This document shows, piece after piece, positions 25,036-31,377 of a stretch of 64,000 nucleotides of DNA; positions within the stretch are counted from its first letter, which is position 1, and every line of letters begins with the position of its first letter. Origin of the DNA: Escherichia coli. GTDB lineage: Bacteria > Pseudomonadota > Gammaproteobacteria > Enterobacterales > Enterobacteriaceae. A program made the position numbers and the translations under genes. The notes beneath the pieces were generated by a model that was not told the origin of the DNA, did no database searches, and saw nothing but the letters and a program-made list of their open reading frames with translations. The stretch lies in the NCBI RefSeq assembly GCF_003790525.1, contig NZ_CP033635.1; one strand, given 5' to 3'.

Positions 25036-25371
25036 CAGAAGCGATCCTCTTATGAGATGTAGGGTGACATGGCGATGCTCATTTCGTAGCCATAATCTAA
25101 AAATATCTACATTTCTGAAAAATGCGCACAAATGCGCCATATTGTTTTCTTATTGTGATCAAAAGCAACAAATTGGTAACATTTAACGTAGGGTATTAAG
25201 GCAAAGTGAGACAGGAAATGAATAACTAAAGCAACAGGTTAGGGGTGGATTACCATCAGAGAACAGATTTTCTGGTCGATAAAAAACGGTAAATGGCTTC
25301 ACTGCAAAATGACCGTTAGTAAACTAAACATATTATCTGCCCCGTTTTAGCGGGGCAGATATAACATTAAA

Positions 25372-27624
25372 TTACAAATAGAGATAGTTCGGCGGTTCTC
25401 CAGTTTTCCCTAAAAGAAGAGCGCTACGCCCAGGAATATTGATATTTAGAGTTCCGCCTCTAAGCATAAATGCTTTACCAGGGGGGATAATTTTTCGGGT
25501 ATTATTAATAATAATGTTAACGCTATTACTCCCCATGTTTTTATATATTCCAGGTTGCAATTTGTTAGGCCAGGTACCTTCAACTTCTTCGTTTCCTTTA
25601 TTTATTATAACTAGTCCATCATGAGGAGAGTGATTAATGTTCACAGAATCCCCACGACTAAAGGCCAGAACGTTTTTAGTTGCAAATACACCCTCAAATG
25701 CGCTCCATATTCCTGCTTTATCTATATATAATGCGTGGAATTCATTGTAGAGCTGCTGATAGGTAGAGCAACCTTTATTAAGCCACGCCTCACCGCCGAC
25801 ACGCGTCGACCCATCATAATTTTTAATTTCAGTCGTTGATTTTAATACTTGGCCATCCCAGTAAACTAAAGGCCTGCTGAACGGGAGAGCGGCCATATAT
25901 GCCATTGCTAATTGTTCATCTTGTTGATGGTTAAATAGAAAGTCATTGAAAAGATTGCCATTGTTAGGAAAATCGTGGTTAATGTTAATCAATATCCGTC
26001 TTTTTGACGGGATGCTTGAGATTGTTGAACCCGGTTTTGATGCAAGGGTTTGGAGATCGCCACCAAATGAAAAGGCTTTTATCGTCTTCATGAGCAATGA
26101 AAAATCAATGGCGCTTAAATCATCTCTTTCATAAAGCAGCGATGACATTTGTTCTTCATCCAACTGACAAGTTACCAGGTATTCCATGTAATTCATAACG
26201 GCTTTTTCATGATATATTGGCTTAAATAAGTTAGTATTGTGTAATCGCTCATTATAAATTGTAAGCGGTGGAGTTATTGATCTTTCTATTTGTTCATGTT
26301 TTGAGTGTTTTGCTGCATCGTAACGTAAACCTCGTACGCCATATTTTCGCATTTCACGAACGTATTGATTTTGCAACATAATAACCTGGTCACTTTTGGG
26401 GGTTGTTTTAGGCATTCCATTTAAACGCTTTTCTTTTAATGCATGGAGGTTTTCCCATTCATCCTTAGAGATGTTATCTTTACTTGTTTCAAAGTCTTTT
26501 GCAGTGAGATGTATATCTTCTGGATGGATTTGTTTACGTTCTTTTGTTACTGGATCTATAGTAAATGGAATCAAAACCTGACCTTGCCAATAGCCAGGGA
26601 TACCACTTTCTATATCTTTACTGATCTTCGCTCGTATATCAGCAGAGGGATAATCCAGGTCATTTTTACCACTACCCCCAATTCCCATAAAGTTAAAGGT
26701 ATAATCAGGAATGATATCGATACCAAATTTTTTAGCATCTTTAACCAATGCGATAAAATCCTGCAAATCTCCCATTGGATTATGGATGGTACAAAGATCT
26801 TCGGGTTGATAAGCGTGAAACCAGTAACCTTTTTCTTCTTCGGGAGTTTCTGGTCCGTCGGCGCGGAAAGTTGTCACTGGAGGAATTTGTATATACCCAT
26901 AATGGGAACGTGCAAACTCAGACATATTTTCCCTGATTTGCTGGTAGGTGGCATTAAAAGCATGAAGAATCGCTTCGCCAGGTTTTTTGGGGGTGATGAT
27001 TTCACATTGTGATTTCTGAACAGCAGTAAGAGATTTACGCTCAAGTGTTTGCCGTAGATGTTCTGGATTGATTAGTATTTTAAATGTTTCTTGCTGTCCG
27101 GAAGGTGACGTCACGTTAATATTATATACATCGGCTGCCAGCTCATAGTCAGGAATGTTAATAGCATATGCAACATACTTATCTTTTGGGGATGGTTTGT
27201 CAGATATAATGTGAGTGAAATGTTCAGCTGGACCATACTGATGAACGCTGCTGTTATCACCTCTTTCAACCATTGTATCTCGTTGATAAACCCATGTTTT
27301 CCCTTCTCCTATCCTGTCTGGCGCTGTAATGCTACGCTGTGCAGCTTTATTCAGCTCTCGGTAAGTTGTATCTGGAGAAAGGGAAATTTTATAATCGTTT
27401 TTTAACAGATCATTAATGACTTTTTCTGCGTGAAAAGTTGATATAATTTCTCTGTCTTTTAAATCCTGAGGATAAACTCCACAAGCATTAATAATATTTG
27501 TTATACAGTTTAGATATTCTAATGTATTTAATTTGGAATTTAGATCCCCGTCAGTAATGTTCCATGATAACAATGTGGGGTTGTCGATAGGTAAATTTCT
27601 TGGTCCTGGTTTTATAGAAAACAT
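25372..27624 (-). CDS. ygaQ: GH13 (alpha-amylase family)-like protein with ~250-aa N-terminal extension; YgaQ-like
   Basis: 750-aa intact ORF in visibly AT-rich DNA. Motifs resembling GH13 conserved regions: HYGYIQIPPVTT, GIDIIPDYTFNFMG, GVRGLRYDAAKH (region II) and ININHDFPN (region IV). No obvious signal peptide. Gene symbol tentative. Confidence 0.65.
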   Translation of the reverse strand: MFSIKPGPRNLPIDNPTLLSWNITDGDLNSKLNTLEYLNCITNIINACGVYPQDLKDREIISTFHAEKVINDLLKNDYKISLSPDTTYRELNKAAQRSITAPDRIGEGKTWVYQRDTMVERGDNSSVHQYGPAEHFTHIISDKPSPKDKYVAYAINIPDYELAADVYNINVTSPSGQQETFKILINPEHLRQTLERKSLTAVQKSQCEIITPKKPGEAILHAFNATYQQIRENMSEFARSHYGYIQIPPVTTFRADGPETPEEEKGYWFHAYQPEDLCTIHNPMGDLQDFIALVKDAKKFGIDIIPDYTFNFMGIGGSGKNDLDYPSADIRAKISKDIESGIPGYWQGQVLIPFTIDPVTKERKQIHPEDIHLTAKDFETSKDNISKDEWENLHALKEKRLNGMPKTTPKSDQVIMLQNQYVREMRKYGVRGLRYDAAKHSKHEQIERSITPPLTIYNERLHNTNLFKPIYHEKAVMNYMEYLVTCQLDEEQMSSLLYERDDLSAIDFSLLMKTIKAFSFGGDLQTLASKPGSTISSIPSKRRILININHDFPNNGNLFNDFLFNHQQDEQLAMAYMAALPFSRPLVYWDGQVLKSTTEIKNYDGSTRVGGEAWLNKGCSTYQQLYNEFHALYIDKAGIWSAFEGVFATKNVLAFSRGDSVNINHSPHDGLVIINKGNEEVEGTWPNKLQPGIYKNMGSNSVNIIINNTRKIIPPGKAFMLRGGTLNINIPGRSALLLGKTGEPPNYLYL

Positions 27625-28180
27625 AATAAAGTTCCTCTAATGGTAGAGTAATAAGGTGTATACGGAAACATAAAAATGTTTAATTGTTGTGAAAGTAATT
27701 GCAAACAGATGTCCTACTTTTATCCAATATTCATATGGAAAAGGATAATGCTTAAATCTGTTTTTTTAATTATCGATGTGGTCTGGAGAGGCAACTGTCA
27801 AAAATCGCTCATACGAAACTAATGATTAGCAGAATAAGTTCTATAAAAGAATATATTGCTATATGAAGTTTATTTTTATGGAGTGAAAAGTAACAGATAT
27901 CATCATGATGCGAAAACTCTTCAGCTAATGTAATAAAGTTATATTATTAGATACAAAATCATTACAAACTATCATTGAATCGATGATAACTATAGATAGT
28001 GCTTATTATTAACATGCTTGTTGACTGCGAGTATCGACTTTGCGAATGGAAGCGGTGTCGGGATTTATGTCGCGTGTAATTACGACCCAGGATGGATGAG
28101 AACGCATAAAATCTCTTATTTACATCATATAATCATCATGTTTATTGCTTGGTTTATAAGTATTGTTATTGCATACTCAA

Positions 28181-28256
28181 GGCCCTTTAGCTCAGTGGTT
28201 AGAGCAGGCGACTCATAATCGCCTGGTCGCTGGTTCAAGTCCAGCAGGGGCCACCA
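28181..28256 (+). tRNA. ileY: tRNA-Ile2 (anticodon CAU, lysidine-modified)
   Basis: 76-nt cloverleaf ggccctttagctcagtggttagagcaggcgaCTCATAAtcgcc...ggttcaagtccagcaggggccacca with encoded CCA. Confidence 0.93.
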
Positions 28257-30451: not shown

Positions 30452-30781
30452 AGTTCTAAAAGCAGTTTTCAATGATAAATAAATGGCGATTTTTACAAAG
30501 AGATAATAACGTAGATTGAAATAATATGTATTATTGATTGAGTAAACGGGATTATTCTTCACACTGCATCCATTTTGCTGTCACTACCAAAGTAAAAGGG
30601 GCTGCGATTTCACGTAATCCCTTGATTTATTTGATAAGTTGGCGGTGTCTGAACTGGTGCTGTAATTGGTTGAAATATTTCATCTAATGTCTGGTTCAAC
30701 TTTCCTTAGCTGCTTGAAAGTTTTTTGATCTTACCCAGCAATACCAGCGTTACGGTGCACCACGCCTGACTGAATAACTGC

Positions 30782-31048
30782 GTGCTTAGAGTTACCACTG
30801 CAGCGCATAACCGTGGCAGCAGGCCCGGACAGAACAAACGGCTCAGGACATTATCGGTAGGGGACGCACTGCTAGTCTGTAAACTGAACCGACTGGGGCG
30901 CAGTATGTGGCATCTTGTCGTGCTGTTGGAGGAGCTGTGCGAACGTGGTATTAACTTTCGTGCTCTGGCCCAATCTATATTTGCCCAACAATGGGGGGAC
31001 GGAAGCTGTAAAAGTAAAACAATCTGCGATCTCAGAGTTATTGTGTGA
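30782..31048 (+). pseudogene. pinH: Serine recombinase (Pin/Hin DNA invertase) internal fragment
   Basis: 88-aa ORF ...RPGQNKRLRTLSVGDALLVCKLNRLGRSMWHLVVLLEELCERGINFRALAQSI... resembles the middle of Pin-family invertases but lacks the N-terminal catalytic Ser region and the C-terminal HTH. Gene symbol tentative. Confidence 0.6.
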
Positions 31049-31377
31049 TTTTTATGTGAGCAGAAGATATTCATCAGAAACGATTATGTAAATCATTTTA
31101 TTTTGCCGACTGCCTGATTGTCGAAAGAAAAGAATACGCCCGTGTTTCCTGAATAGATTGACTTTTTTATCCAACCACACTTCAGCGCACTGCGTTTAAA
31201 AAATGCCTCATTCTTATGCGGAATATCATCATTTCATCATGATGTCTTTGATGAGCGGTGAACACAATACACTTGCGCTGTCTCTTCAGGATGAATCCCC
31301 TGGTCTGGTGCCTGTGGGCTGATGTTGCAGCAAAGCTAAGGTCGCTTAAACGCTACTCAGTATTCACTTTTCAGAGG

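Follow-up and report, generated by a model that had tools for sequence, protein, structure and literature searches.

The DNA considered here is a 64-kb stretch of Escherichia coli (hereafter the window), and its subject is an AT-rich islet of 6237 bp (positions 25141-31377) that surrounds the tRNA gene ileY, with the core gene glaH (csiD) on one side and the transfer-messenger RNA (tmRNA) gene ssrA on the other. The islet is 100% identical to the DNA of E. coli SMS-3-5 (NC_010498.1, 2856258-2862495, minus strand) and is nothing new as such, being the ygaQ-ileY-ypjCB-pinH region that is already annotated in RefSeq and whose genes are named in K-12. The features of the locus are as follows.

24058-25035, minus strand: glaH (csiD), the core gene that anchors the left side (RefSeq; 96-99% amino-acid identity in other Escherichia).
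25235-35964, no strand: the whole variable block of 10.7 kb, from the glaH upstream region to the ssrA terminator (breakpoints against other Escherichia).
25372-27624, minus strand: ygaQ, an intact GH13-like open reading frame (ORF) of 750 aa with a unique N-terminal region of about 215 aa (RefSeq alpha-amylase-family gene).
27625-28180, no strand: ygaQ-ileY spacer, 30.8% G+C, with divergent promoters.
28181-28256, plus strand: ileY, tRNA-Ile2 with anticodon CAU, which would read AUA after lysidine modification (ARAGORN; Rfam tRNA, 71.7 bits; RefSeq tRNA-Ile).
28211-28256, plus strand: the ileY segment from anticodon loop to 3' end, the attachment core in other strains.
28353-28510, plus strand: an unannotated structured element of about 160 nt, about 100 nt past ileY on the same strand (E. 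coli/E. albertii alignment).
29013-30452, plus strand: ypjCB pseudogene (DUF5507 and DUF5508), carrying TAG codons at 29366-29368 and 29492-29494 as well as a frameshift in the A-run that ends at 29186.
About 30812-30985, plus strand: pinH-type serine-invertase remnant, the middle of the catalytic domain only (in RefSeq an incomplete recombinase at about 30812-30979).
31007-31357, plus strand: ypjA leader with an annotated ORF of 39 codons at 31203-31322 (annotation, paralogy).
31387-35955, plus strand: ypjA/ehaD autotransporter adhesin, 49.8% G+C, within the variable block.
36116-36478, minus strand: ssrA (tmRNA), the right anchor, its 3' end pointing toward the variable block.

The composition of the islet sets it apart from its surroundings. 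Its G+C content of 37.5% is the lowest among 6237-bp segments of the window (range 0.373-0.563, median 0.499), compared with 53.7% from csiR to glaH on the left and 49.8-50.1% on the ypjA and ssrA side. Both these windowed values and those of the individual segments (ygaQ, 37.9%; ygaQ-ileY spacer, 30.8%; ileY to ypjCB, 37.8%; ypjCB, 34.9%) bear out the AT-richness that an initial annotation, made from the sequence alone, had noticed on both sides of the tRNA. The G+C content at third codon positions (GC3) is 0.30-0.31 in ygaQ and ypjCB against 0.5-0.7 in neighbouring genes, and ATA codons occur at 28 and 24 per 1000 in these two genes against 0-6 in most long ORFs of the window, making up 32-42% of their isoleucine codons. 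The islet thus differs clearly from core genes (37.5% against about 50% G+C) and, as in a xenogeneic islet, both composition and codon usage lie off the host norm. A second AT-rich trough in the window (about 14860-15520, 35-39% G+C) corresponds to the alaE-stpA intergenic region by collinearity with strain A134_1EC.

The borders of the variable DNA are given by glaH loci retrieved from one genome per species. Two species, Escherichia sp. E1V33 and E. whittamii, have ssrA at a distance of about 0.6 kb upstream of glaH, with ygaQ, ileY, ypjCB and ypjA all missing. Homology to the window ends at 25234 in E1V33 and at 25181 in E. whittamii and restarts in both at 35965, just beyond the terminator on the ssrA side, at 10 bp from the stop codon of ypjA, with 354 and 429 bp, respectively, standing in place of the block. 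Because of these breakpoints the comparative unit is taken to be 25235-35964, of which the AT-rich islet is the left 60%; ypjA falls inside the block despite its normal G+C. The initial annotation had taken csiD on one side and ypjA and ssrA on the other for flanking core genes, a description that must be given up for ypjA, which is absent together with the islet in these two species. The reading favoured here, with a probability of roughly 0.8, is that a composite accessory block of 10.7 kb fills the ssrA-glaH gap in E. coli and that the islet is its AT-rich part.

Elsewhere in the genus the same site carries other DNA. E. albertii has ileY and a ygaQ homolog at the same place, followed by unrelated AT-rich DNA and without ypjCB, pin or ypjA, and two further Escherichia lineages (L007 and L008) have different AT-rich orphan ORFs at the site, among them an ankyrin-repeat ORF in L008; an NCBIfam scan of the site ORFs in E. 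albertii, L007 and L008 returned no names other than ankyrin repeats. Judged from these alignments, the ssrA-glaH site is a hypervariable region of the genus Escherichia. In Salmonella, Citrobacter, Pseudocitrobacter, Leclercia and others glaH is instead preceded by normal-GC (tct-like) genes, with no tRNA or tmRNA within 10 kb of glaH. Pseudocitrobacter GlaH and LhgO (L009, L010 and L012) are 95-99% identical to those of E. coli and the Citrobacter and Salmonella proteins 84-91%, which suggests that the csiD-lhgO-gab cluster may have been exchanged recently between Escherichia and Pseudocitrobacter.

Within E. coli the islet is patchy. Among 5,426 complete E. coli genomes, and at a coverage of at least 80%, the whole islet is present in 2858, ygaQ in 3367 (with some trace of it in 4101), ypjCB in 3022, ileY with its flanks in 2910, and the segment spanning pin and the ypjA leader in 3002. 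Universal conservation, which would have spoken against foreign origin, is therefore not seen (only about 55% of complete genomes have the islet, and about 55-60% the block), and the distribution is that of a xenogeneic islet, patchy in the species and absent at the syntenic site in related genera. Islet-free genomes are of two types. In one, deletions are bounded by insertion sequences (IS), as in strain c1-17, where IS3 cuts ygaQ and other islands come after it, in agreement with the published loss of ileY from strains W and B through IS-mediated deletions (PMC3032704); in the other, different islands abut ileY.

The age of this DNA can be read from ygaQ. Between SMS-3-5 and a K-12-like strain the synonymous divergence (dS) of ygaQ is 0.095 and the ratio of nonsynonymous to synonymous divergence (dN/dS) is 0.15, with dS of 0.10 for gabT, 0.13 for gabD, 0.13 for lhgO and 0.18 for glaH; because its dS is neighbour-like and its dN/dS low, ygaQ is older than the split of these phylogroups and has been mostly under purifying selection. 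Between E. coli and E. albertii the dS of ygaQ is 2.08 (saturated) and dN/dS 0.16, whereas dS is 0.29 for the adjacent glaH and 0.14 for lhgO, and the two ygaQ alleles are therefore far older than the flanking chromosome. This would fit a ygaQ-ileY module that was independently acquired or allelically replaced; plain vertical descent would not. The dS of glaH (24058-25140) between the two E. coli strains, 0.18, is near its value of 0.29 against E. albertii, and genes at the border of the variable block appear unusually diverged or recombined.

These divergences bear on a very improbable alternative, that the block is ancestral Escherichia DNA whose AT-richness has a functional or mutational cause and which many lineages have lost. 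Such a history would agree with the occupation of the same locus in E. coli and E. albertii, with a divergence within E. coli equal to that of neighbouring genes, and with the 146 bp of ygaQ-side flank (to 25380) that L008 retains without ygaQ, possibly a deletion scar. It is opposed by the interspecies dS of ygaQ set against that of its neighbours, by the lack of any counterpart beside glaH in Salmonella, Citrobacter, Pseudocitrobacter, Leclercia and others, by ygaQ and ypjCB being essentially without homologs outside Escherichia, by a GC3 of 0.30 and an ATA usage far off the genome norm, and by the phage invertase fragment embedded in the block.

The product of ygaQ was initially described as an intact GH13-like ORF, and at 750 aa with weak but significant alpha-amylase matches it is just that. 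Pfam matches are to PF02806 (5.9e-5, residues 649-738) and PF00128 (8.7e-4, residues 264-446), and the best solved relatives are Bacillus subtilis-type amylases (PDB 3dc0 and 1bag, 3e-7 to 1e-6). The motif GLRYDAAKH aligns with the GH13 nucleophile region. Of the catalytic Asp/Glu/Asp triad, the Asp of that region can be seen, as can an NINHD motif; the acid/base Glu was not placed in the alignments obtained, and scores are all far under NCBIfam equivalog cut-offs. By profile, then, YgaQ would be a GH13 protein, with a recognisable catalytic (beta/alpha)8 domain and C-terminal beta domain. The gene is intact in SMS-3-5 and a pseudogene with three stops in the K-12-like strain. Homologs were found only in E. 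coli, in E. albertii (59%) and in one gut-metagenome protein (35%). The last, a distant relative of 824 aa on a human-gut contig (L087, 4916-7390), has neighbours with InvH, LRR, FidL-like, EAL and invasin/intimin domains, a virulence-island-like context. This is a hint at such a context and no proof of it, and only speculatively might YgaQ-type proteins be secreted effectors or have a role in adhesion.

ileY folds as a cloverleaf with a CAU anticodon and an ileX-type body, as a tRNA-Ile2 does. The pairs C4-G69 and C5-G68, which are determinants for TilS, are present. A near-duplicate, ileX, lies between mug and nfeF in ordinary core surroundings and differs from ileY at only two positions (97% identity), and a P1-like phage-plasmid carries a tRNA-Ile(CAU) that is 88% identical to ileY. 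Upstream, a promoter-like TAGATA-16-TATCAT at 27948-27975 is the same hexamer pair as that listed for K-12 ileY, and conservation of 28106-28164 in E. albertii amounts to 73-87%. In K-12, RpoD promoters flagged with H-NS sites occur in both spacers flanking ileY (PMC3946193), and Hha binding has been reported near the gene (PMC2408971).

In other strains ileY serves as a live site of attachment. [quoted passage not shown] In strain A134_1EC the T-arm and 3' acceptor strand of ileY (15043-15118) are replaced by a variant with compensatory changes. Taken together, these sequences mark ileY as a genuine site of attachment for P4-like elements. In A134_1EC a CP4-type island (cbtA/yeeU, Ag43) has its distal end starting at 15218, 100 bp past the tRNA, and ypjCB, pin and ypjA are absent from that strain.

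The initial annotation had taken the islet for an old, degraded element at a tRNA hotspot. Spelled out as a single phage or island that inserted into ileY, lost its integrase and att sites to decay and left ygaQ, ypjCB and the Pin remnant behind, that history is unlikely. It draws on the proven use of ileY as an attachment site elsewhere (PMC8193136), on the phage-type invertase fragment 2.6 kb downstream of ileY and on the foreign composition of the islet, and the claim that no intact integrase remains was accurate, since none is found in the RefSeq annotation or the ORF list and the invertase fragment is the sole trace of a recombinase. However, integration into the 3' half of ileY (28211-28256) puts cargo on the 3' side only, and AT-rich ygaQ lies on the 5' side. 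The search for direct repeats of the tRNA 3' end that had been proposed as a check gave none in the window: the 3'-terminal 25-mer of ileY, at up to three mismatches, has one copy in the 64 kb, and a repeat search of 24000-37000 yielded no convincing att-type direct repeat. At the empty sites of E1V33 and E. whittamii the tRNA is missing too, and E. albertii has linked ygaQ and ileY without ypjCB, pin or ypjA, so that the two sides of the tRNA have different histories. For the left half, the ygaQ side, a single insertion is already contradicted. Because the empty sites are without the tRNA, its 3' end is not repeated and ygaQ lies 5' of it, ileY is read as an accessory part of the block and not as its target.

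Downstream of ileY, ypjCB is decayed. Its repaired translation matches the NCBIfam model Ecoli_YpjCB (NF050179) over the full length at 916 bits against a cut-off of 650, which identifies the gene. Compared with the K-12-like strain it is 81-87% identical and carries different lesions, and constraint on it is relaxed, since dN/dS is 0.45-1.26; intact alleles of 479-492 aa occur in other E. coli and Shigella. The A-run at 29181-29186 is A5 in the window and A6 in NC_010498.1, the sole difference over the 24 kb compared, and the resulting frameshift, absent from the RefSeq record, may be a homopolymer sequencing or version difference.

The gene had been described as a decayed pentapeptide-repeat-like gene. 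The decay is confirmed by the frameshift and the two TAG stops; the pentapeptide label is unsupported, because YpjCB has no match to a pentapeptide-repeat profile in Pfam, where only DUF5507 and DUF5508 are found, and no homology to known members. About six tandem pentads (LDFKG CFFSG QNFSN YDIQY VNWGT SLFDL) can be seen by eye and resemble A(D/N)LXX, which may explain the earlier impression. A PDB sequence search found no relative at E<=10, an exhaustive phmmer search of 1.84 billion representative proteins returned only fragments of the same gene, and an AlphaFold2 model built from 17 sequences of 86-96% identity is unusable (mean predicted local distance difference test score of 34).

The Pin-invertase remnant noted initially is a serine-recombinase fragment of about 170 bp. 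It matches positions 64-102 of the 145 in the Pfam Resolvase profile (7.8e-7) and contains stops, and its DNA is 73-83% identical to invertase genes of P2/Mu-type phages over 30820-30961 only. Without the Resolvase N-terminus and without a helix-turn-helix domain it does not belong among the functional Pin/Hin/Gin/Cin invertases. In most E. coli genomes the adjoining ypjA leader has a paralog of 87-89% identity, which is found upstream of a second autotransporter locus, ycgV/ymgJ. Searches of phage and plasmid DNA with the islet matched only the tRNA, the invertase fragment, the ypjA-leader paralog or mislabelled chromosomes.

That this is old, degraded and foreign DNA, as first proposed, is upheld by its G+C content, codon usage, patchiness, the neighbour-like dS of ygaQ and its states of decay, and these states differ among the genes: ygaQ is intact in this strain but disrupted in K-12, ypjCB is disrupted, and of the invertase only about 170 bp are left. 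Under the composite-block reading, several old acquisitions would have built up the block in the variable region between ssrA and glaH prior to the diversification of E. coli, and the block would then have been inherited vertically, while individual lineages underwent deletions and replacements of their own. ileY, an additional AUA-reading tRNA copy that the cell can do without, would have come within the acquired DNA, and the P1-like phage-plasmid counts in favour of ileY as cargo, as it demonstrates that mobile DNA can carry tRNA-Ile(CAU); the more specific proposal that ileY was imported as a helper tRNA for ATA-rich cargo is a weaker one. Today the block may be largely silent DNA bound by H-NS and Hha, as reported for K-12, which would fit xenogeneic silencing. 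ileY would add AUA-decoding capacity while the resident genes drift toward loss, and in other strains P4-like integrative elements would use the 3' half of ileY as a secondary landing pad.

Several points weigh against this account. The ygaQ-like gene and ileY of E. albertii could mean that the block, or a part of it, is ancestral to the genus and was deleted in E. whittamii and E1V33, so that what looks like a gain in E. coli may be a loss elsewhere. ileY is so close to ileX that local duplication or gene conversion would be indistinguishable from import. ypjA, with its normal G+C, may have a separate history. The reports of H-NS sites concern K-12, and silencing in SMS-3-5 would be by analogy; homolog searches found no donor lineage for ygaQ or ypjCB.

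The structured element downstream of ileY stands out by its conservation. It consists of a 33-bp hairpin (28354-28441), a run of A6, an 8-bp GC hairpin (28449-28470) and an 11-bp hairpin (28471-28498). Between E. coli and E. albertii the interval 28353-28510 is 80-100% identical, compared with 20-60% for its flanks and 64% for ygaQ, and 28441-28510 has a single change in 70 nt. The plus strand folds at -56 kcal/mol (z = -4.4), with 0 of 200 shuffled sequences as stable, and the consensus fold reaches -56.6 kcal/mol on the plus strand against -36.1 kcal/mol on the minus strand; nine G-U pairs of the SMS-3-5 element would become C-A mismatches on the minus strand. Among six distinct element sequences 99% of cells pair, and about a dozen pairs vary on one side while remaining G-U or Watson-Crick; the 12 one-sided substitutions all preserve pairing on the plus strand and not on the minus strand. 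True covariation, with changes on both sides, was not found among the six. On the minus strand the GC hairpin followed by T6 resembles an intrinsic terminator, and the commonest E. coli allele (T at 28453) weakens this terminator-like hairpin.

The element is present in 3094 of the 5,426 genomes and is never annotated. In K-12 the corresponding stretch is around 2,785,505-2,785,665, where position 2,785,563 is 199 nt past ileY. A search against Rfam at lenient thresholds gave chance-level matches only and no family, and scans of metagenomes with 20-mers and of viral contigs with 27-mers recovered only E. coli-like or E. albertii-like copies. A 41-codon ORF within it was rejected as coding, with 9 of 41 residues different in E. 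albertii and 10, 9 and 6 substitutions over the codon positions; a repeat of the enterobacterial repetitive intergenic consensus (ERIC) or miniature inverted-repeat transposable element (MITE) type is ruled out, the element being single-copy. As candidate roles, it might act as the trailer RNA of a tRNA, as a substrate for RNase III or as a short antisense small RNA. Only tentatively might the element be put forward as a functional structured RNA, such as a processed 3' trailer or a hairpin of the RNase III type, with a part in expressing ileY or in regulating the islet. A regulatory RNA derived from a tRNA 3' trailer, 3'ETS-leuZ, was reportedly described by Lalaouna et al. in 2015. The element is like RNAs of that type in lying downstream of a tRNA on the same strand, in being non-coding and in being conserved above its surroundings; it is unlike them in beginning about 100 nt past the tRNA and in being dominated by the 33-bp hairpin.

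Among known systems the nearest is the K-12 ygaQ-ileY-ypjC/ypjB-pinH-ypjA region next to prophage CP4-57, which has the same order and orientation and 94% DNA identity over 98% of the islet, and which shares with it the pinH fragment as well as the small ORF that lies upstream of ypjA. It differs in its ygaQ, with three stops where that of SMS-3-5 is intact, in its ypjCB lesions, and in the CP4-57-type island that lies between ypjA and ssrA in the K-12-like strain and is missing from SMS-3-5. Islands made by P4-type tyrosine integrases (CP4-57 at ssrA; ter elements at ileY and ileX) share with the islet a tRNA-like neighbour, an odd composition, variability among strains and decaying cargo. 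Unlike them, the islet is without an integrase or flanking direct repeats and has cargo on both sides of the tRNA, and its empty site lacks the tRNA. The marks of an integrase-made tRNA island, a tyrosine integrase gene beside the tRNA 3' end, a direct repeat of that end at the far border, and cargo confined to the 3' side of a core tRNA, are all missing here. The tRNA cargo of P1-like phage-plasmids is similar in that an AUA-decoding tRNA sits amid AT-rich, ATA-rich accessory DNA, but ileY is closer to ileX (97% against 88%) and no mobility genes are left around it.

Much of this locus was already known, including the gene names from K-12, the RefSeq annotation, the integration site in ileY and the H-NS and Hha targets in the spacers. 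What changes is the reading of the locus, in which the tRNA would be cargo or at least accessory and the true variable site would be the ssrA-glaH gap. Composition alone under-calls the island by 4.6 kb, because ypjA, with its normal G+C, belongs to the block. The hairpin element downstream of ileY is the only part of the locus with potential for new biology.

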